DNA of 64,000 bases from an uncultured Candidatus Saccharibacteria bacterium (GTDB lineage: Bacteria > Patescibacteriota > Saccharimonadia > Saccharimonadales > CAZDQS01): assembly GCA_964507855.1 (NCBI GenBank), contig CAZDQS010000001.1:230121-294120 (forward strand). Direction: 5' to 3'. The notes beneath the pieces are model-generated. The model saw only the letters and a list, made by a program, of their open reading frames with translations. It was not told the origin of the DNA and did not search any database. Positions 4,317-64,000 of this stretch are shown here, piece after piece. The position numbers and the translations under genes are program-made. Each line of letters opens with the position of its first letter. Within the stretch, counting starts at the first letter, position 1.

Positions 4317-6560
4317 TCAATTGCCGTAACGAGAAATCACGATGCTAAGGTCAATACCGTTGATACTTCCGTTGCCGTCCAGGTCGCCATTACCTGAGGT
4401 CTTGCCATAGTTTCTGAGCACAATATTTAGGTCGGTAGCATCGACGTGGCCGTCTCCATTGACATCGCCGCTGTATTCTTGGGGCGGTGGTGTAGTGGTG
4501 TCAGGGTAGGATAATTCGTAGTAGCGGGGAAGTTCGACCTCTTTGAGCGCAGTAGGAGTGGAGAAGTCAAATTGCGGTATTGTTGTTACTTTGCCGGTAC
4601 CGTCAATTTTGTAGGCGCTACCGTCACGGCGCTGGACCTCGATGAGCATACCCGGCTGTAATACCGACAGGTTGAAATCGCTTGGCTCGAGGTCGCGTGT
4701 ACCATTGACGAGCACGCGGATAAATTGATGATGCAATGGGTGGTTGGGGTTGTTCTTTTCGTTGATGGCGATTGGTTCCAGTCGTGATCCGCCCACCCAA
4801 GAATCTTTGACGACGCGAGGGTGTTTGCCGTCTGCATTGCCACTGCCCAGGAGTACTGAATGGTCGTTGACCCCATTGGCATTAAACACGACCCGTTCGT
4901 AGCGCTGGTAGAAGCCGTTTGCGTCAGGGGCTTTGGAGTTAGCGACAAACTCTATGTCCATCTTGGCGTTACCAAATGTGATTGAATCCTCGTGGGCGTA
5001 TGAGTTGCTGTAGGCGCCTTGCCGGATGCCCTTGTTGTTGTGGTAGTACGCAGCGTGCTTGATGACTGGCGGTGGCCCGACGTTAGACCAGATAAAGGTA
5101 CCAAGCGCGGCGTTATTGTGGGATATGGTTCGCTCTTGTTCCCATTCACCGAAGTCTGCGGACGGTGTCCACCAGATGCCGGAAGCGTCTACCGTGCCTT
5201 GGACGCCGACGGCTACGGAGTCACGTAGCATAAGGCCGGTGCCCTTGGTCAGCTTAAAGCCGGTGACCGTAAATTTATCGCCGTTTGGATCATCAATGTC
5301 CGGGCCGCCTGGTGATACCTTGGCAGCGACAGCTCGCTCATAGGTTATGTCGTGGCTCTGCTCTTCTACTCCTTGATCCCACCAATATGCATCAGCCTGG
5401 ACGTCAAAGGCTATGGTGTTACGGAACGTGATACCATGGCTGGCGTGGGCCACGAAGGTGTGCGAGCCAAAATCGCGCCCGACTACGCCTTCTACGATAG
5501 AGCCGCGGCTGCCATCCATAGCATGGTGGAAGTGAATACCCCAACGACCTAATATTTTGCCGTCTTCACCAGGCTTGCCTTCTCTCCAGACCTGGAATTT
5601 ACGTGGTCCGAAGTGCCGGGCGGTGAAATATTTCAGACTTTGCGGCTTGGTAGAGCGCATGAACAAGTGCGAGCGCTTGCCGGGAGTCCCCTCGATCCGG
5701 ACATTCCGTGAGAGGTTGAGGACTTCGGCTGTCCACTTGTTGTTTACTTTGGGGTGGGGATATGACACGCCTTGGTTGAGAGTTATGGTCGCACCGTTGA
5801 CAGCAGTAATGGTTCGCGTGTCAAAGCTTTGGGTGTAGGATCTGTCATCTGGGTTGCCTGGATCTGGTGATTGAGTCGGCGTAATGGTGATTTCGTCGCC
5901 AACTTGCCAGCCTACCGGGGCATTCTTAAGTGTAATTTGGGTTGCTCCCTGCGGTATGCTCTCCGCTGCCCAATCCCACGAAGTTTTGGTGGTGCCGTGG
6001 ATGTCCAGTTCGCCATTGCCCATGACCCACACGCCAACGTCATCCGGTATGGGATCCATGCCGCCGCCAACTACTTTATTTTCGTCAATATTGACTAGCT
6101 GGATAAAGTGTTCGACATCTGCGCTCGCCGGCCGCATGACCATTGTGCCTGTAATAATGATGTTACGTTCGGTAATTAACTTTACGTCTTTGTTGGGCGC
6201 AAATACCAATGTGCCCATCACATGCATTTCGCCAAGTGTTGGGCTTTGCGGGAGGTCGTAAGTGACGGTGTGGTTGGTGTTGATGCCTATGGTTTCCCCG
6301 GCTTTGGGGACTTGACCGGTGCTCCAGACACTCGCGTCACTCCAGTTGCCGCTCTTGACGGTCGTGAGTGAAAAAGCAGCTCGAGTAGAAGCAACCCAAT
6401 ATCCGATACCGGTTGCGACTGTCAGTACAAATAGTAGAGTTATCAGGCCATAGTGGCGCCGAGACCAGGATGGTGATCGTGGTAGCAAGCCAAAAGCCGA
6501 CTGTGTTTGTCTGCCGGAGCGTGCGTTACGCCTGCGCTGCGGGCCTGTGTTTATGTTCAT
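4317..6560 (-). CDS. Membrane-anchored/secreted G8-domain, beta-helix protein with C-terminal type I dockerin repeats
   Basis: ORF 4317..6608. ATG at 6560 (MNINTGPQRRR, AAGGA 8 nt upstream) preferred. TM helix LITLLFVLTVATGIGYWV. G8-like start SGNWSDASVWSTGQVPKAGETIGI. C-terminal GDVNGDGHVDATDLNIVLRNYG..GDLDGNGSINGIDLSIVISRYG is a dockerin pair. Confidence 0.65.
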   Translation of the reverse strand: MNINTGPQRRRNARSGRQTQSAFGLLPRSPSWSRRHYGLITLLFVLTVATGIGYWVASTRAAFSLTTVKSGNWSDASVWSTGQVPKAGETIGINTNHTVTYDLPQSPTLGEMHVMGTLVFAPNKDVKLITERNIIITGTMVMRPASADVEHFIQLVNIDENKVVGGGMDPIPDDVGVWVMGNGELDIHGTTKTSWDWAAESIPQGATQITLKNAPVGWQVGDEITITPTQSPDPGNPDDRSYTQSFDTRTITAVNGATITLNQGVSYPHPKVNNKWTAEVLNLSRNVRIEGTPGKRSHLFMRSTKPQSLKYFTARHFGPRKFQVWREGKPGEDGKILGRWGIHFHHAMDGSRGSIVEGVVGRDFGSHTFVAHASHGITFRNTIAFDVQADAYWWDQGVEEQSHDITYERAVAAKVSPGGPDIDDPNGDKFTVTGFKLTKGTGLMLRDSVAVGVQGTVDASGIWWTPSADFGEWEQERTISHNNAALGTFIWSNVGPPPVIKHAAYYHNNKGIRQGAYSNSYAHEDSITFGNAKMDIEFVANSKAPDANGFYQRYERVVFNANGVNDHSVLLGSGNADGKHPRVVKDSWVGGSRLEPIAINEKNNPNHPLHHQFIRVLVNGTRDLEPSDFNLSVLQPGMLIEVQRRDGSAYKIDGTGKVTTIPQFDFSTPTALKEVELPRYYELSYPDTTTPPPQEYSGDVNGDGHVDATDLNIVLRNYGKTSGNGDLDGNGSINGIDLSIVISRYGN

Positions 6561-6646
6561 GGATATAATCCTTAAGGTTAAAGTACGCTTACGTACATCA
6601 ACTGTCAAGAGAGGTCGAGAAAAGGTGCTTATGCTATCATGAGCAT

Positions 6647-7132
6647 ATGATTGGCTATGTAATCCTCGGCCTGGTGCTGGGCTTGCCGCTGCTCCTTGGT
6701 ATTCTCCTGCGGGTTAATGTTTCATATCTGTTTTTTGCCCTCATGGCGGGCGAGTTGCTGGCCCGTTACTTTGGTGATGATGCCGAAGTGGTCATGGGGC
6801 TGGTGACCAAGGATGAGGTGGTGCTACGGTATGCGGAAGTGGTGGTGTTGCTCCTGCCGATAGTCCTGACGGCGCTCGTGCTCAAGCACACTATTTCGCA
6901 TGGCAAGCTGTTTGTTCAGCTGATACCGATGGTTGTTACCGGTGTCGTGCTGGCGGCATTCCTGCTGCCGATGCTGCCGGACGGATTACAGACCGAAGTC
7001 CGTTCTACCCAAATTGGCGGGCAATTATTGAAAGACAGTGATTTCATCATCGGTGCGGTGGTGATGCTCCAGATTGTCTCTCTCTGGTTGCTTCAGCGGA
7101 GCAAAGAGGGGCACGGGAAGAAGAAGCATTAG
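6647..7132 (+). CDS. Hypothetical polytopic membrane protein
   Basis: 161 aa, 4-5 hydrophobic helices. ATG lies 6 nt after TGcTATCAT. Confidence 0.6.
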   Translation: MIGYVILGLVLGLPLLLGILLRVNVSYLFFALMAGELLARYFGDDAEVVMGLVTKDEVVLRYAEVVVLLLPIVLTALVLKHTISHGKLFVQLIPMVVTGVVLAAFLLPMLPDGLQTEVRSTQIGGQLLKDSDFIIGAVVMLQIVSLWLLQRSKEGHGKKKH

Positions 7133-7166
7133 CCGTAAACTACTTTGAAGTGAAACTGGGTATGAA

Positions 7167-7300
7167 TGGGCCCACTGGACTAGCGCACATCTGCACTCGT
7201 CCTCGAAGCAGGCTTCTGCGGGCGAGCTTGAAGACCGAACCCAGGACTTGCAGATTTTCTAAAGAAAATCCGCGTCCTGATTTCGAGGCACAATAGACTG
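7167..7300 (-). repeat. Degenerate tRNA-Lys 3' third with a 57-nt T-loop insert (type II module)
   Basis: Minus strand reads ..CAGGACGCGGATTTTC TTTA GAAAATCTGCAAGTCCTGGGTTCG[57 nt]TCCAGTGGGCCCA. Homologous to 62666..62804. Confidence 0.55.
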
Positions 7301-7338
7301 CCAATGAAAAAGCCCCACCGTTGGTGAGGCATTTTCAT

Positions 7339-7497
7339 TGGAGGGCCCACTGGGATTCGGTCACCTTTGGCGACCCCGGAACTTCACGATTGGCAGCGTA
7401 GCTGCCATCGGAAGATTCCCTTGCGACATGTCACCGGCACGTCTCACCCAGGACACGCGCACGCGTCCTGATTTTGTATCTCGAGTAAGTGCTCCAC
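7339..7497 (-). repeat. Partial tRNA-Lys copy (12 nt + 21 nt exact) split by an 86-nt three-hairpin core (type I module)
   Basis: 7446-7457 and 7339-7359 are identical to tRNA-Lys positions 7552-7563 and 7530-7550. The 86-nt insert at 7360-7445 is homologous to 42316..42434 and 34866..34972. Confidence 0.6.
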
Positions 7498-7498
7498 G

Positions 7499-7523
7499 AA
7501 AAAACTCCACACAAGGTGGAGTT
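7499..7523 (-). terminator. Rho-independent terminator after tRNA-Lys(UUU)
   Basis: Minus strand CTCCAC CTTGT GTGGAG followed by TTTTTT. Confidence 0.7.
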
Positions 7524-7529
7524 CATTCG

Positions 7530-7606
7530 TGGAGGGCCCACTGGGATTCGAACCCAGGACACGTGGCTTAAAAGGCCACTGCTCTAACCAACTGAGCTAT
7601 GGGCCC
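7530..7606 (-). tRNA. tRNA-Lys(UUU), CCA encoded
   Basis: Minus strand GGGCCCA TA GCTC AGTTGGTTA GAGC A GTGGC CTTTTAA GCCAC GTGTC CTGGG TTCGAAT CCCAG TGGGCCC T CCA; clean cloverleaf. Confidence 0.95.
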
Positions 7607-7718
7607 ATGATGAGACAAACCTACGGTTTTTCTCATCGCTCGTCGGCGAAGCCGAGTCGCTGAAGCGACCAAGCTCGCTGCTCTTTTCCCCTTAAGCGAG
7701 CTTCCGAAAACTCCGTAT

Positions 7719-7747
7719 ATTATCTGGTTTTTGGGGTAAAAAGTCAA
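7719..7747 (-). promoter_or_regulatory. Candidate promoter of tRNA-Lys(UUU): TTGACT-17-GATAAT
   Basis: Minus strand TTGACT (7747-7742), 17-nt spacer, GATAAT (7724-7719). This leaves a hairpin-rich leader of about 105 nt before the tRNA. Confidence 0.45.
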
Positions 7748-7807
7748 TTTCTCTTGTAGCCAAGTTTATGATTGGCATTTATAAAGTATATTAACTATTA
7801 TTCAGGT

Positions 7808-9244
7808 ATGGAAGGTCTGATTCATCATAAGTTCCGGCGCACGACACTGATTTCGGTGGGGTTGGCGGCATTCTTGCTTGGACTTGTCGCTGCTCGGCAT
7901 GTGGTGGTGCCCGGCTTCTCTTGGCTGTTTTTGCTTCTGCCCTGTGTCGTGATAGTGCGCCGGAAGACGTTGGTTGCGTTGATGGCGGTTTGTCTCATTG
8001 GCCTATCACTCGGTGTGGCGCGCGGTAGCACGGTGATGGTGGCGGTGTCCGAATACCAGCAGTTCTATAATCAGGAAATTGCGGCGCAGGGTGTGGTGAT
8101 TGATGATCCGGTGTATGACGATAATGGGCAATTTGACTTTCGGGTGGGCCGCGTTAGGATTGATGACACAAAACTGCCGGGCCAGGTGCGGGTACGGGGG
8201 TTTGTCACTGATATCCGTCGTGGTGATGCGGTGCGGGTGGCGGGGAGGCTGCAAGACGGGTTTGGCAATTACCAGGCGGAAGTGCGGTTTGCTGATATAG
8301 CTGTTGTCAGCCGGTCGGGTAGTTGGCTGGAGAAAACCAGGCGGGAATTTTTTGCCTCTACCTATAATGTGTTGCCTGAGCCTCAAGCGAGTTTGGGTTT
8401 GGGGTTTCTGGTTGGCTTGCGTTCGGCGCTGCCGGAAGATTTTGATGAGCAGTTGAGGATTGCCGGACTGACGCATATAGTCGTTGCATCCGGCTACAAC
8501 TTGACTATTCTCGTGCGATTGTCCCGGCGGCTTTTGGTCAAGCACTCCAAGTATCAGGCCTTCATGGGTTCCGTGCTGCTCGTATTGGGGTTCTTGGTTA
8601 TTACGGGCGCTAGTCCGTCAATTACGCGTGCGGCTGTCGTGACGCTGCTCAGTCTCGGGGCATGGTACTACGGGCGACGGATTCATCCGATACTGCTGAT
8701 TTTACTCGGCGCGGCGCTGACAGCTGGGGTCAATCCGCTCTTTATCTGGCATGACCTTGGCTGGTGGTTATCGTTCTTGGCATTTACCGGTGTGTTGGTG
8801 CTCGCGCCGTTACTAACGAAACGTTTATGTGGAGATAAGCAGCCAAAGTTGCTTGCGCAAGTGGCTATTGAAACAATTGCCGCGCAAGTTATGGCGACGC
8901 CACTTATCATGTTTGTATTCGGTGAATTTTCCCTTGTGGCGCTGCTTGCCAACCTGGCGGTTGTGCCATTTATCCCGCTAGCGATGTTGTTTACTTTTGT
9001 TGGCGGCTCGGTCGGGTTCGTCTCGCCGGTACTTGGCAGTTGGTTGGCGTTGCCTGCGCAGTGGGTTCTTGGATATATCGTCTCAATTACCCGGCTGCTC
9101 GCCTCGCCCTCGTGGGCACAGCAGTCTGTTGCGCTAGGTGCCGGCGGTCTTGCTGTTTTGTATGGGGTGGTGGCTATGGTGGCTGTTGTTTTGTACCGCA
9201 AGACAAAGCTTCGATTTCACCACGTGCCGGCTGTCGTCGAATAG
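7808..9244 (+). CDS. comEC: ComEC/Rec2 DNA-uptake channel (DUF4131 + competence domain, no C-terminal metallo-beta-lactamase domain)
   Basis: ORF 7772..9244. ATG at 7808 lies 6 nt after TATTAT. Many TM helices; GLTHIVVASGYNLTIL and SPSITRAAVV blocks are typical of ComEC. Confidence 0.8.
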   Translation: MEGLIHHKFRRTTLISVGLAAFLLGLVAARHVVVPGFSWLFLLLPCVVIVRRKTLVALMAVCLIGLSLGVARGSTVMVAVSEYQQFYNQEIAAQGVVIDDPVYDDNGQFDFRVGRVRIDDTKLPGQVRVRGFVTDIRRGDAVRVAGRLQDGFGNYQAEVRFADIAVVSRSGSWLEKTRREFFASTYNVLPEPQASLGLGFLVGLRSALPEDFDEQLRIAGLTHIVVASGYNLTILVRLSRRLLVKHSKYQAFMGSVLLVLGFLVITGASPSITRAAVVTLLSLGAWYYGRRIHPILLILLGAALTAGVNPLFIWHDLGWWLSFLAFTGVLVLAPLLTKRLCGDKQPKLLAQVAIETIAAQVMATPLIMFVFGEFSLVALLANLAVVPFIPLAMLFTFVGGSVGFVSPVLGSWLALPAQWVLGYIVSITRLLASPSWAQQSVALGAGGLAVLYGVVAMVAVVLYRKTKLRFHHVPAVVE

Positions 9245-34723: not shown

Positions 34724-34842
34724 TAGGAGTCTAATTATATCATATTTACATTTTATATCCACATTACTAACAGAGGTAGCTTTTTGCAAGAAAATACGGT
34801 ATAATTTTCCAGTCGTATCCCTTATTGAAGGGAAAAGAGCAG

Positions 34843-34865
34843 CGGGGATTGGCGCAGTTGGCTAG
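34843..34865 (+). pseudogene. Orphan 5' 23 nt of tRNA-Pro (acceptor 5' strand + D arm)
   Basis: cggggattggcgcagttggctag is identical to 35017-35039. Confidence 0.8.
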
Positions 34866-34972
34866 TGTGAGAACTGCCAGTGGCAGTTCGGAAACGAATC
34901 TTCTCTTGCAAACTTGTTTGCAAAGATGAAGTTCGGGGGTCGCGGAACGTGACCGCGGGTACCGCGCGCAGA
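34866..34972 (+). repeat. Type I three-hairpin module fused to the tRNA-Pro 5' fragment
   Basis: TGTGAGAACTGCCAGTGGCAGTTCGGAAACGAATCTTC[TCTTGCAAA CTTG TTTGCAAAGA]TGAAGTTCGGGGGTCGCGGAACGTGACCGCGGGTACC. Collinear with 42316..42434 and 7360..7445(-). Confidence 0.6.
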
Positions 34973-35016
34973 CATTCCGACAGTACTTTAAAATATAGAC
35001 AGTCAGTTACATACGA

Positions 35017-35093
35017 CGGGGATTGGCGCAGTTGGCTAGCGCGCGCGGTTTGGGACCGCGAGGTCGGAGGTTCGAGTCCTCTATCCCCGACCA
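35017..35093 (+). tRNA. tRNA-Pro(UGG), CCA encoded
   Basis: CGGGGAT TG GCGC AGTTGGCTA GCGC G CGCGG TTTGGGA CCGCG AGGTC GGAGG TTCGAGT CCTCT ATCCCCG A CCA. Confidence 0.95.
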
Positions 35094-36751
35094 CGTTCGA
35101 AATTTTTAGATTTAAGGAACTCTGCATAGGGTTCCTTAAGTTTTATATCGACTACTTTCCATCTGGTAATCTTGTTTTTTGGTGGTACAAATTCACCCTC
35201 TACAACAAGGTTCGAGATGAACTTTTCAAGGATTTTATTAAAGACCGTAACGCTCGTTGTTGACCGAAGTAAATCAGCTACATTATCGAATAGTTCGAGA
35301 TACTTTTCGTAAGTAGGTATGACAGTCTTCAAACGTTCTCGTTCAGCTTTAGCAATTTTATGAGCGTTCCTGAGTCTCTTTAGTTCAGCCCTGTAATCTT
35401 TCAGGTCTTCTTTGTAATGCTCTGCCAGCTCCTTATCTTCACCTGATACTATTAGCTTGGCTCTATTGTAATCACGTTGTGTATCTGTAATTTGTTTATT
35501 CAATGAACTGATTATGGAATAAAGCTGTCTAAGTCGAGCTTCTCTACTCTCTGCTACTTCTACGGCATAATTATCATAGTTGCTCTTAGTTGTGAAACGG
35601 TATTTATCTAGGTAGTCGATTGCATAGTCTGTAATCACTTTAGCTCTAGGTCCCTTGTCTTTCATAATACAACCGTCTGTCTCGCACCTATATCGGTAGT
35701 AGTTGACATCTTTCTTAACAGTGATGCCCGAAGATAAGGATTTACCACAAGCCTTACAGAATACTTTTCCAAGCAGAAGGTTGGCTTTTACTTGATCGGA
35801 GGGGGCTGTTATCGATGACTTAAATTTACTCGACATAAAGTCTTTGGCTTGATTGATTTTCAGGAAGTCTTCGGCACCGATTGCAGGTGTAAATCCATAC
35901 TTCTCGATTATATTGACGACACCACCACTGTATCTAATTATTCCTGCATAAGTCGGGTCGCTTAAAATATTGGAAACACTGTCTTTATCCCACTTATATG
36001 CAAAATGACCATCTTGTTTGTATTTGAATACTCTGTAATCACTTCTACCGTTCAAGTAACGCAAAATGTTAGCCTGAGACTTGCCCTCAATACGCATGTC
36101 AAAAGCATGCTTAATAATATTGTAGTTTTCGCCATCAGGGTACAGTTTGCCTTTCTCGGTTTTTAGATACCCGTGCAAAAAGCTACGCAAGAACTTGCCA
36201 CTAAGCGTCTTACGTTTGTTCCCACGAGTAACTACTTCACTCTGGTGTTCTGAAAATTGTTTAGCAAGTACGAAGGACATGCCCAGCAACATCTTACCTG
36301 CTGGATTGTTTTCAAAAGTTGATGTGGCGAAACGTAAATCTTTGATAATACCCTTGTCGAGCAGGTCTATGATTTCGCCAGCTTCTTTCATGTTTCTTGC
36401 AAGCCTGTCGGGGTGATACGAGATTATGCCGTCGTACTTGCCACTAATGACATCATCAAGCATCTTACGAAATAAAGGACGTATATCAGGCTCTTTAGCT
36501 GAACCATCCTCTTTAATAATGTCATTCTCGTCAAGTGATATACCGTCATATCCGACTACTCGTTCTTTACATTCGGCTATCTGGTCTTCTTTAGATTTTG
36601 CTTGCCGAGTTTCGTCAGTCGTTGATTTACGAGCATATAAGACATAGCGCAGGTTTTCTGGTTTGTAGAACTCCTCCTCAGCTTGAGTAGAGGATTGTAG
36701 CATTTCAAAGAGTTGTTCAAGAGGAGTACTGTTTGGTGCTAAGTCTGACAT
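35081..36751 (-). CDS. Large serine recombinase (resolvase catalytic domain + recombinase domain + zinc ribbon + coiled coil)
   Basis: YVLYARKSTTDE (catalytic Ser), ..HPDRLARN.., CKACGKSLS..YYRYRCETDGC zinc ribbon, long C-terminal coiled coil. The last 4 codons and stop lie inside the tRNA-Pro 3' end. Confidence 0.9.
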   Translation of the reverse strand: MSDLAPNSTPLEQLFEMLQSSTQAEEEFYKPENLRYVLYARKSTTDETRQAKSKEDQIAECKERVVGYDGISLDENDIIKEDGSAKEPDIRPLFRKMLDDVISGKYDGIISYHPDRLARNMKEAGEIIDLLDKGIIKDLRFATSTFENNPAGKMLLGMSFVLAKQFSEHQSEVVTRGNKRKTLSGKFLRSFLHGYLKTEKGKLYPDGENYNIIKHAFDMRIEGKSQANILRYLNGRSDYRVFKYKQDGHFAYKWDKDSVSNILSDPTYAGIIRYSGGVVNIIEKYGFTPAIGAEDFLKINQAKDFMSSKFKSSITAPSDQVKANLLLGKVFCKACGKSLSSGITVKKDVNYYRYRCETDGCIMKDKGPRAKVITDYAIDYLDKYRFTTKSNYDNYAVEVAESREARLRQLYSIISSLNKQITDTQRDYNRAKLIVSGEDKELAEHYKEDLKDYRAELKRLRNAHKIAKAERERLKTVIPTYEKYLELFDNVADLLRSTTSVTVFNKILEKFISNLVVEGEFVPPKNKITRWKVVDIKLKEPYAEFLKSKNFERGRG

Positions 36752-42302: not shown

Positions 42303-42315
42303 AGATACGATATCA

Positions 42316-42434
42316 AAGGTTGGGGTGAGACATGCCGGTGGCAGGTCGCAGGGCAATCTACTCTTCAAAACTTGTTTTGAAAGATGTAGTTGCGGGCCCG
42401 CCGGTAGGCGGGTCGAGTCCCTCCCGGGGTACCA
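42316..42434 (+). repeat. Type I three-hairpin module inside a degenerate tRNA-Arg-like 3' third
   Basis: AAGGTTGGGGT[GAGACATGCCGGTGGCAGGTCGCAGGGCAATCTAC..TGTAGTTGCGGGCCCGCCGGTAGGCGGG]TCGAGTCCCTCCCGGGGTACCA. The track ORF covering this region is an artefact. Confidence 0.6.
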
Positions 42435-44147: not shown

Positions 44148-44196
44148 GGGTAATGCGAGGGGGATTTGAACGGGAGCAACCCGGAAGGGTGTCTTT

Positions 44197-44205
44197 TGTT
44201 ATGAT
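44197..44205 (+). promoter_or_regulatory. Extended -10 (TGtTATGAT) 6 nt before the ATG at 44212
   Basis: tgttatgat, then gggtgc, then ATG. Confidence 0.45.
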
Positions 44206-62857: not shown

Positions 62858-63319
62858 ATGAACTCGCCTACATTGTTTCAGTACTGTCAAAAACTTATAG
62901 TACTTTCAGATGACAAAACAAAAGTTTTATTAGCAAAACGCAAGGGTGAAGCTGATTACGATGGTGTTTACTCATTCATTGGCGGAAAGATGGAAACGAC
63001 AGATGAGACACTTTTGGCAGGTATGAAGCGGGAAAAAGATGAAGAAATCGGCAAAGATGCAAAAATAGCAGTATTGCCCAATGAAACGTACAATCTGCTT
63101 TTTCGCAAAAAAGATGGAAATTGCATGGTCTTACCTCACATTGCTAGTATTTTTGTTTCAGGCGATATTAAACTGAACGAAGAATACAGCGACTACAAGT
63201 GGATTACATTGGACAAACTTGAAGAATTTCAGCCAAAGATCGAAAATATCCCTGAGCTTGCAAAATGGGCTCATAAGAAGCTACAAAACCTAAAGATTGA
63301 TCAGCTGGTACAAATATAA
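62858..63319 (+). CDS. NUDIX hydrolase (low-GC cassette)
   Basis: Nudix box GGKMETTDETLLAGMKREKDEEIG; about 38% GC by eye. Confidence 0.8.
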   Translation: MNSPTLFQYCQKLIVLSDDKTKVLLAKRKGEADYDGVYSFIGGKMETTDETLLAGMKREKDEEIGKDAKIAVLPNETYNLLFRKKDGNCMVLPHIASIFVSGDIKLNEEYSDYKWITLDKLEEFQPKIENIPELAKWAHKKLQNLKIDQLVQI

Positions 63320-63410
63320 CTTCTTGGATTACTCATAAGATTAGTAGAGACTGAATCTACTACAGCCCTCCATACAAAATGCCTCACGATAAGTGGGGCT
63401 TTTTGTATGG

Positions 63411-63553
63411 CAAGACTACAAGCTGGGATTCGAACGGGTTTGCCGGTGGCAAACCCCGGACCCGAAGCCACAAAGTTGCTGGTAGCAAGTTTGCGGTGGA
63501 GTAGGCCAGCACATTTTGTGCTCGGCCCCAGGCGAATCCCATATGGCCCTCCA
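63411..63553 (+). repeat. tRNA-Lys-derived module with an inverted T-arm copy at the 5' end and a direct 3' end copy
   Basis: CTGGGATTCGAAC.. (reverse complement of the T arm) ... hairpins ... GGCGAATCCCATATGGCCCTCCA. Confidence 0.5.
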
Positions 63554-63614
63554 AATTGATTCATTTAAATTATACGAGTTCCCAAAATGGCCCTCCAGGC
63601 ATAAGAACTATGAA

Positions 63615-63638
63615 TACCTCGTCTCTGAGGTATTTTTG
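63615..63638 (+). terminator. Terminator hairpin after the last GGCCCTCCA copy
   Basis: ACCTC GTCTCT GAGGT ATTTTTGTTT. Confidence 0.55.
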
Positions 63639-63655
63639 TTTGCTACCATATACGT

Positions 63656-64000
63656 ATGGTAGATATCTTTGTAGAGGAAAATTGCAACAACGCACCAAAA
63701 AAGCAATTTGTGAAAGACTTCTTAATCGCTATTGCGACCTCAGACCTTGAAGCAGTCGCGAATATGCTTGATGATAATGTCACCCTGGAAGCGGTGGGCC
63801 ATAAGATGATTAGTGAAAAAGAATCTGTAATGCGGGCATTGGTTGAAAATAATACATTGAGAGGGGTATTTAAGCTGACTGTTCGCAACATACTCAGTCA
63901 TGGTAACAAATGCGCAGCCGAGGGTGTCATGAGTTATAAAGATGGTAGTGAAGTTGCGTTCTGTGGCATTTACACATTTACGAGCCACAGTAAAGATGCA
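63656..64000 (+). CDS. SnoaL/NTF2-like fold protein, N-terminal 115 codons; runs off the window end
   Basis: Own translation MVDIFVEENCNNAPKKQFVKDFLIAIATSDLEAVANMLDDNVTLEAVGHKMISEKESVMRAL..AAEGVMSYKDGSEVAFCGIYTF. ATG lies 6 nt after TGcTACCAT. Confidence 0.5.
   Translation, partial: MVDIFVEENCNNAPKKQFVKDFLIAIATSDLEAVANMLDDNVTLEAVGHKMISEKESVMRALVENNTLRGVFKLTVRNILSHGNKCAAEGVMSYKDGSEVAFCGIYTFTSHSKDA

Follow-up and report, generated by a model that had tools for sequence, protein, structure and literature searches.

Small folded modules stacked behind tRNA-Lys(UUU) in a Saccharibacteria genome: possible cargo-less insertions nested in tRNA genes

Tandem islands that target tRNA or transfer-messenger RNA (tmRNA) genes, such as the Prochlorococcus tycheposons (bioRxiv 10.1101/2020.12.28.424599), integrate into a tRNA gene, supply it with a replacement end, leave the displaced end behind as a direct repeat and stack older ends outward. 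Integron cassette arrays likewise grow at a fixed site from small units, with the older units further out. Here we describe a locus that recalls both, namely the region behind the tRNA-Lys(UUU) gene in 64,000 nucleotides (nt) of an uncultured Candidatus Saccharibacteria genome (contig CAZDQS010000001.1, positions 230,121 to 294,120; the window in what follows). At a probability of roughly 50%, we read this locus as two small, cargo-less insertion modules, stacked and nested in the 3' part of the tRNA gene. By analogy, they may be viewed as members of a family of protein-less, structured, tRNA-nested insertion modules, which would work like tandem tRNA-island accretion and follow an array logic like that of integron cassettes. 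The anatomy of the locus, its family membership, the strand-specific covarying fold, the layering with its decay, empty next to independently filled sites and the decoupling of core from tRNA are direct observations; beyond them, we infer that the modules are mobile, now or recently, and that insertion, or its tolerance, depends on the core fold.

The family lies outside islands and integrons because it has no integrase, no cargo and no attC cores. As in islands, the tRNA repeat is direct and the tRNA restored, and one tRNA bearing a group I intron is occupied as well. However, the modules measure just ~180-190 nt, contain neither an integrase inside the insert nor cargo between the repeats, and carry a covarying core in a copy of the T-loop. 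They also differ from islands in that mirror-image, 5'-type insertions would bring a promoter and a tRNA 5' part, and in that one core family uses at least 14 tRNA identities. The likeness to integrons would go further if the recombination site of the modules were, as in attC, a folded single strand defined by structure and with a variable central part. Yet no intI, attI or Pc was found, nor any tyrosine recombinase in the module flanks, and the head of the array is a tRNA gene. Besides, the module junctions hold no R'/R'' GTTRRRY pair, the type-1 core is conserved in sequence whereas the attC terminal structure is variable, and most modules have no open reading frame (ORF).

The tRNA-Lys(UUU) gene itself is intact and encodes its CCA (7606-7530, minus strand; ARAGORN; 73.9 bits with the Rfam tRNA model). 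A first, sequence-only reading of this DNA had predicted a single functional tRNA, and ARAGORN indeed calls no other in the region, while a permissive Rfam cmscan of 6500-8200 (E-values up to 10) returned nothing beyond it. The same reading had proposed three stacked tRNA-Lys 3' ends, and these are real: the live tRNA, an exact 21-nt copy and a degenerate third end. The 21-nt sequence CGAATCCCAGTGGGCCCTCCA occurs exactly at 7550-7530 and again at 7359-7339 (minus; repeat family D3), where it forms the displaced end of layer 1 and reproduces tRNA positions 56-76 including the CCA. The oldest displaced end, GTCCAGTGGGCCCA (7167..7180, minus; repeat family D2), is degenerate and without CCA, as had been noted, and ends up 35 nt away from the stop of a convergent gene. 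With up to one mismatch allowed, CCAGTGGGCCC picks out just the three ends of this locus in the whole 64 kb.

Each end had also been credited with its own terminator. This applies to the first two, but not to the oldest. Both T1 (7492..7534, minus; inverted repeat I2) and T2 (7301..7341, minus; inverted repeat I1) are predicted to fold into extended hairpins with 19-nt arms that include a CCA end in the pairing, the outer pairs of T1 taking in the CTCCA end of the tRNA and T2 pairing with the CCA of the layer-1 end (-28.2 kcal/mol, z-score -6.9, and -26.2 kcal/mol, z-score -7.7, respectively). For T2, the terminator scan called the hairpin 7330-7312 together with its T-run. As a side observation, tRNA-Lys(UUU), tRNA-His, tRNA-Arg(UCG) and tRNA-Lys(CUU) have a terminator design in common, in which the CCA and an A-rich run pair with the U-tract and UGG, so that the CCA end of the tRNA is buried in the stem.

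The two layers between these ends (191 nt and 180 nt) contain no plausible ORF and no cargo genes, and the 451-nt stretch folds far better than its shuffles (z-score -10.8). Both modules start with an exact 13-nt box, AAATCAGGACGCG (7474-7462 and 7283-7271), which is separated from the preceding CCA by exactly 55 nt in either case and pairs with a copy of the variable-loop/T-stem region to form a hairpin. In module 1 (hairpin 7446..7474, minus; repeat families D7 and D1; predicted fold), the partner of the box is a copy of tRNA positions 44-54, the 12-nt CGTGTCCTGGGT, found here for the second time (7457-7446). Between it and the 21-nt copy, 86 nt (7445-7360) replace the single T-loop base T55, just as the earlier reading had it. 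These 86 nt constitute the type-1 core with its helices P0/P1, P2 and P3, located between T54 and C56 of the T-loop copy (7360..7445, minus; 103.5 bits with a covariance model; part of a 34-core alignment). The 5' hairpin of module 2 (7235..7287, minus; D7, I8; predicted fold z-score -5.1) is composed of the box CTCGAAATCAGGACGCG, an inner hairpin GATTTTC/GAAAATC and a copy of tRNA positions 47-57, GTCCTGGGTTCG. It is followed, after TTCG (G57) of the T-loop copy, by a 55-nt type-2 core (7181..7235, minus), recognised from the recurrence of GCAGAAGCNTGCTTCGAGGACG and from four homologues with compensating stems.

Across the 34 aligned type-1 cores, compensatory double changes affect 24 of the 34 base pairs, a value reached by none of 500 shuffles, and 97.3% of cells are paired, as compared to 76.5% in shuffles (again 0/500 reach the observed value) and 28-48% with slid partners. 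Conserved G.U pairs occur at columns 83-92 and 79-96, and G.U is the commonest combination at two pairs (24/34 and 17/34 sequences). Therefore, the fold is that of the tRNA-sense strand, either as RNA or in the form of single-stranded DNA. In P2 and P3, pairing, including G.U, is maintained despite free variation of the sequence, which rules out double-stranded palindromes bound by protein. The type-2 cores (n=4) have compensating stems as well, one hairpin reading GAAG/CUUC or GGAG/CUCC and a second stem CUCG/CGAG, CACG/CGUG or GACG/CGUC. The core junctions read GGT|GAGAC and GAC|CGAAT. Of the described structures we considered, hammerhead, hairpin and hatchet-type ribozymes gave no model match, ends of the IS200/IS605 type were discarded as the two end hairpins are unrelated to each other, and split or permuted tRNA halves were dismissed given that 5'- and 3'-type modules share the same core instead of having complementary ones.

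A fold conserved on one strand through compensatory changes is also what a structured RNA would display. The main rival to our reading holds that the modules are host-beneficial non-coding RNA (ncRNA) genes: small structured RNAs on a tRNA-derived scaffold (a T-arm or D-arm stem), inherited vertically, transcribed together with the tRNA or by terminator readthrough and then processed, the tRNA-like parts serving as scaffold or processing signals. We consider this rather unlikely, although the strong covariation with conserved G.U on the tRNA-sense strand speaks for it. The pseudo-tRNA arms, whose remaining loops are shortened while their stems are retained, would fit it, too. In turn, strong terminators separate most modules from their tRNA, and the promoter scan found no promoter for the modules on their strand, both of which count against a host RNA.

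To place the modules in a wider context, we scanned 185,579 species genomes for exact patterns and repeated the scan on metagenomes (L-numbers below denote loci retrieved from either source). The genomes yielded 17 loci, 14 of them labelled Saccharibacteria, Saccharimonadales or Saccharimonas, one a metagenome-assembled contig labelled 'Thiothrix' with a true core copy, and two chance matches; the metagenomes added 17 further loci. In all true matches, the core lies within a copy of the loop of the adjacent tRNA, and about 30 Saccharibacteria loci combine a direct repeat of a tRNA segment with a restored tRNA. The occupied identities, at least 14 in number, include Val, Arg, Lys, Met, Ser, Tyr, His, Leu, Ala, Gln, Glu and Pro. 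With the covariance model, the total rose to 40 cores. At least 24 of these start 62-96 nt past a tRNA end and have tails near-identical to the 3' end of that tRNA, second-layer cores start 239-261 nt past it, and seven of the 40 lie ahead of a tRNA, at a distance of 29-51 nt, with a duplicated tRNA 5' part in front of them. Single tRNAs may be flanked on both sides (Val in L001, Ser in L015). Wherever a tRNA lies within 700 nt of a core, the two are on the same strand, and this constant orientation is a further point in favour of a host RNA.

Several loci depart from the common layout. In L007 (6565-6757, minus), two stacked modules with different core types follow a tRNA that ARAGORN misses and that contains a group I intron (Rfam RF00028, 79.7 bits); a tmRNA as the target was rejected, as this is an intron-bearing tRNA. 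L031 holds a type-1 and a type-2 core in one T-loop, both at their usual positions. In L033 (430-830, plus), two type-1 cores reside in partial copies of a terminator-like, non-tRNA hairpin, with an unoccupied copy of that hairpin behind them (GGGT|GGGCA). The genome copies L003 and L015 have runs of N masking both sides of the modules, and the unmasked metagenome copy L032 reveals that the masked part of L003 consists of the tRNA and an exact tandem repeat of the module. In L032, this exact tandem copy of a 175-nt module precedes an older, slightly different terminator. Neither a literature search nor Rfam 15 provided a description of the family, Rfam has no family for either core at this or the related loci, and a gathering-threshold Rfam scan of L007, L029, L033 and L039 reported tRNA and group I intron only, both outside the modules. 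Exact-protein look-ups around the locus retrieved only identical contigs, with no strain-level polymorphism among them. The module family is apparently undescribed, and its core is a new candidate RNA or single-stranded-DNA motif.

The outward stacking, with decay growing with distance from the live tRNA, had been anticipated by the sequence-only reading and recurs elsewhere: L001, L017 and L032 all have two layers, each layer bringing its own terminator. Outer tails are degenerate while the cores are intact in window module 2, L001b, L007 and L012, and pseudo-tRNA 5' parts have decayed likewise in L001, L013 and L030. Tails, and some cores, left to decay are not expected of a beneficial RNA gene. 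The same reading held that conserved ends at the corresponding locus of relatives would speak for a functional RNA, and here the picture is mixed. In L006, where the orthologue of a neighbouring 161-aa protein is 44% identical and also adjoins the array, module 1 has the same architecture, with a core 83% identical and five compensatory pairs; it is kept with its architecture in L036, too. This persistence with compensatory changes favours a host RNA. Four further syntenic loci were found, in the gene order RimK, DUF192, 161-aa protein, variable region, ComEC. Among them, the module is degenerate in L043 (47 bits), reduced in L042 to just the P3 helix and a tail, and absent from L044, all of which a host RNA explains poorly. 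The second layer, moreover, differs from genome to genome; that of L006 is a truncated duplicate of module 1 and not a type-2 module.

Instead of a core, L044 contains gene cassettes downstream of tRNA-Lys(UUU) (4420-5700, minus), encoding a GGACT-family protein, small ORFs, and DUF4234 proteins, small membrane proteins included. Direct repeats, made up of CTCCA and ~60 nt of 3' flank, enclose at least two of these cassettes, and the sequence at two cassette ends is TAGTTGCAATAGTT. With intact, degenerate, remnant and cassette states at one syntenic locus, the 3' side of tRNA-Lys(UUU) is therefore a long-standing insertion hot spot with turnover, and the proposal that insertions at this tRNA displaced its end gains from cassettes bounded by tRNA-Lys 3'-end repeats.

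The sequence-only reading went further and took the entire arrangement for inert scars of successive ordinary, integrase-bearing islands whose genes were later deleted. The outward decay of the tRNA 3'-end repeats, the cassettes of L044 at the same tRNA and a serine integrase at the tRNA-Pro of the window all agree with this. Yet constancy of architecture and length, an exact 55-nt spacer found twice and a conserved, covarying core at a fixed T-loop position in ~40 loci and at least 14 tRNA identities would not be expected of deletion remnants. The modules are complete, cargo-less units of ~180-190 nt with cores conserved across genomes, a type-1 module survives at L006 in spite of the divergence of its neighbour protein, and no integrase family recurs nearby. 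For the modules, this explanation is already largely contradicted and, in our view, improbable. What remains of it concerns the tRNA-derived ends, which are scars as had been proposed; the cores are not.

If not scars, are the modules mobile? Cores resemble each other irrespective of tRNA identity: most of the closest relatives of a given core reside at other tRNAs, some in the opposite configuration, as illustrated by the 93% identity between L036 (Lys, 3'-type) and L030 (Gln, 5'-type) and the 90-91% identity among L006 (Lys), L032 (Leu) and L031 (Arg). Besides, tRNA-Pro sites are empty in the related genomes L046, L047 and L049, filled by a D-loop insertion in the window and by a T-loop insertion in L048, where an exact 54-nt copy of the tRNA 5' part precedes the insertion. 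The insertions at tRNA-Pro in the window and in L048 are independent events. Both the decoupling and the empty sites are difficult to reconcile with vertically inherited RNA genes. We count as further signs of mobility the two core types sharing the T-loop of L031, the non-tRNA target in L033, the mere 64-70% likeness of the three window cores and the mismatched tail behind the tRNA-Arg(UCU) of the window (see below).

Other observations weigh against mobile modules. Among 129 module-flanking ORFs, there is no recurrent family of recombinases, transposases or reverse transcriptases, and no autonomous copy was found, four exact-pattern scans of viral contigs as well as phages and plasmids giving no match (in distant blastn comparisons with phages and plasmids, the tRNA part was the sole match). 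Unlike active miniature transposable elements, the modules have neither terminal inverted repeats nor near-identical copies within a genome. The compensatory changes between the window, L006 and L036 fit long-term selection on a host RNA equally well. To keep first-layer tails identical to the live tRNA, selection, re-insertion or gene conversion would be required, and modules behind strong terminators may be untranscribed altogether.

As for an enzyme, no integrase was found within 5 kb of tRNA-Lys(UUU), nor in the 5 kb past the window end. This agrees with the earlier statement that none remains at the locus. Elsewhere, the window encodes one recombinase, 27 kb away: a large serine recombinase (Resolvase and Recombinase domains; 35084-36751, minus) whose gene overlaps with its 3' end the 3' end of tRNA-Pro(UGG). 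Its homologues at the four loci examined are 69-88% identical and located at tRNA-Pro(UGG or GGG) in other Saccharibacteria, the 3' end of the gene abutting a tRNA-Pro with or without a core and variable genes lying on the 5' side. A protein-based scan of viral contigs with this recombinase had no match. It is probably a tRNA-Pro-specific integrative element. A role as the general inserting enzyme is not supported, because the recombinase is bound to tRNA-Pro in every locus examined and is present where a core is absent.

How might the modules insert? In the model we propose, each module of ~180-190 nt would consist of a replacement tRNA 3' end with its own terminator, a hairpin made of the inverted variable-loop/T-stem copy (the box) and a short direct copy of the same region, and a folded core placed exactly in the T-loop, between T54 and C56 for type 1 and after G57 for type 2. 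As the module provides the end that is missing, the tRNA would stay intact after insertion into its T-loop; the former end would be pushed outward and decay there, while the core would persist and spread. Under this layering model, tRNA-Lys(UUU) from C56 onward would itself have been supplied by the newest module. Modules of the 3' type would bring tRNA positions 56-76 and a terminator, those of the 5' type the 5' part of the tRNA together with a promoter. The universal T-arm core GGTTCGAATCC encloses the junctions, GGT|core|CGAAT, which could explain why one core family occupies so many tRNAs. The box is best understood as a fusion of two parts, the T-loop and T-stem 3' strand in sense orientation and the variable region in reverse complement. 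Its pairing partners could be the short direct copy and, in several loci, the first tail bases on the far side of the core. Such pairing would mimic the uninterrupted target duplex.

The composition of the box and the position of the junctions could alternatively point to an origin through RNA, in which a core RNA was ligated into a cleaved tRNA loop, or joined by template switching of a reverse transcriptase, and the chimera copied back into DNA, with the inverted box arising from snap-back priming. Junctions in single-stranded tRNA loops (D-loop, variable region, T-loop), a core fold specific to the sense strand and an inverted copy of the adjacent tRNA segment ahead of the direct one would all suit such a route. 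We nevertheless regard it as quite improbable: no reverse transcriptase is seen near any locus, the box holds uninterrupted T-loop sequence and no core copy, and promoters or terminators inside modules are unexpected in cDNA copies.

Two candidate routes would serve the layering model instead, either of which might follow natural transformation. In one, a recombinase would work in trans on the T-arm core; in the other, modules would loop out and re-enter, Campbell-type, via the 21-54-nt tRNA repeats. The latter would account for tandem copies and for spread from cell to cell in a naturally competent group, yet not for the colonisation of new tRNAs. Repeats of this length would also promote unequal crossing-over, and the exact tandem duplication in L032 could be taken as evidence that no element is involved at all, just local tandem duplication of tRNA-gene parts together with independent expansion of hairpin loops (cf. 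rRNA intervening sequences). As the sole explanation, this is contradicted by the presence of one 86-nt core, at 80-93% identity, in many unrelated genomes and at many unrelated tRNAs, as well as in the non-tRNA hairpin of L033, and we deem it very improbable; it likely operates as an amplification mechanism within arrays. A bolder version of the insertion model is doubtful, namely that the cores are mobile elements of a new class, without proteins, dependent on structure and directed at the universal T-loop as well as at other tRNA loops. The active form of such elements could be either an RNA (self-cleaving, self-inserting or guide-like) or a folded single strand of DNA imported through competence.

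The window itself contains further members of the family. GAGACGTGCCGGTGACATGTCGCA, the start of the 86-nt insert, is found again after tRNA-Arg(UCU) (42327-42350), and GCAGAAGCNTGCTTCGAGGACG of the type-2 core after tRNA-Lys(CUU) (62743-62764; two occurrences in the window versus none expected); neither pattern had a match in 100 shuffles. The covariance model recovered three full type-1 cores, 64-70% alike, at 7347-7453 (minus), 42319-42425 (plus) and 34861-34966 (plus), and weak remnants at 57677-57721 and 63437-63455. The module upstream of tRNA-Pro(UGG) (35017-35093) is of the 5' type (34843-34990, plus) and has its type-1 core (94 bits) at the D-loop position: 23 nt identical to the tRNA 5' end lie before the core, and a mini anticodon-stem hairpin, a promoter-like TATAGA and the intact tRNA-Pro(UGG) follow. 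Directly behind tRNA-Arg(UCU), a type-1 module (42303-42432, plus) lies inside an operon, with no terminator between the two, an arrangement that would suit a co-transcribed host RNA. Its T-stem copy and tail agree with each other, mismatch the adjacent tRNA and match a tRNA-Arg(UCG)-type end of other genomes. This module ends 8 nt before an ORF starting MQVVFVTGNQNKLQEA, which, read by eye, is a putative RdgB/HAM1-like protein.

Downstream of tRNA-Lys(CUU), an array (62632-63660, plus) comprises a type-2 module (62670-62806), a NUDIX ORF (62858-63319) between remnants of the tRNA 3' end, in the manner of a cargo cassette, a third kind of T-loop insert (63420-63553) ending CGAATCCCATATGGCCCTCCA, and a further AATGGCCCTCCA at 63587-63598. 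We also noted what appears to be a decayed type-1 remnant behind tRNA-Arg(UCG) (57640-57760, plus) and a box-only vestige, GGGGGATTTGAAC (an inverted T-loop), behind tRNA-His (44160-44200, plus). On the 5' side of tRNA-Lys(UUU), its transcript has a sigma-70-like promoter (TTGACT-17-GATAAT; 7719..7747, minus; promoter scan), a motif also present upstream of the tRNA-Lys(UUU) of L042-L045, followed by a leader of ~110 nt. A 15-nt sequence, GGGAAAAGAGCAGCG, is common to this leader (7676-7690, minus) and to the pseudo-tRNA-Pro leader (34830-34844, plus), with 0.09 chance matches expected. The Lys leader may itself hold a decayed 5'-type layer. The neighbours of the locus encode a G8/dockerin protein, the 161-aa protein (a membrane protein), ComEC and YebC.

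Apart from islands and integrons, the family also fails to match miniature inverted-repeat transposable elements (MITEs), introns and every Rfam family. Like MITEs, repetitive extragenic palindromic sequences, bacterial interspersed mosaic elements and Correia-type repeats, the modules are short, protein-less, structured, multi-copy and intergenic. However, their core ends (GAGAC..., ...GTGAC(C)) form no terminal inverted repeats, and a short target-site duplication is replaced by 21-54 nt of tRNA. Copies within the genome are as diverged as stated above, with just three full type-1 cores in 64 kb, and modules occur strictly at tRNA loops, with partial duplication of the target gene. Group I introns in tRNAs of Patescibacteria (PMC13011429) and non-canonical archaeal tRNA introns (in D-, variable and T-loops) resemble the cores in having a covarying fold at defined loop positions, and tRNA group I introns are common in the same bacterial group. 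In contrast to introns, the cores reside in truncated tRNA copies beside an intact gene, such that splicing is not needed, and none matches the group I model. Finally, ncRNAs from tRNA spacers (3' external transcribed spacer RNAs), tmRNA, YrlA and mascRNA likewise belong to a tRNA transcription unit or present T-arm/acceptor-like sequence with CCA, whereas the modules have no acceptor 5' strand, no Rfam match and, in most cases, a terminator before them.

In summary, the 86-nt core is a well-supported new structured motif, for which the roles of ribozyme, guide and recombination site are concrete candidates. The contig breaks seen here are explained by the repeats and partial tRNA copies, which can also confuse predictors of tRNAs and islands in genomes of the candidate phyla radiation. 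If the protein-less class of elements were real, each element would build a spare part from its own target, with leader-proximal arrays growing outward at most tRNA genes of a streamlined genome. And if the modules do move, they would show how essential tRNA genes can tolerate insertions in genomes of ~1 Mb, in which at least half of the tRNA loci seen here are occupied: all that the element carries is a folded core, an expression signal and a replacement end for the gene, with no protein gene involved.

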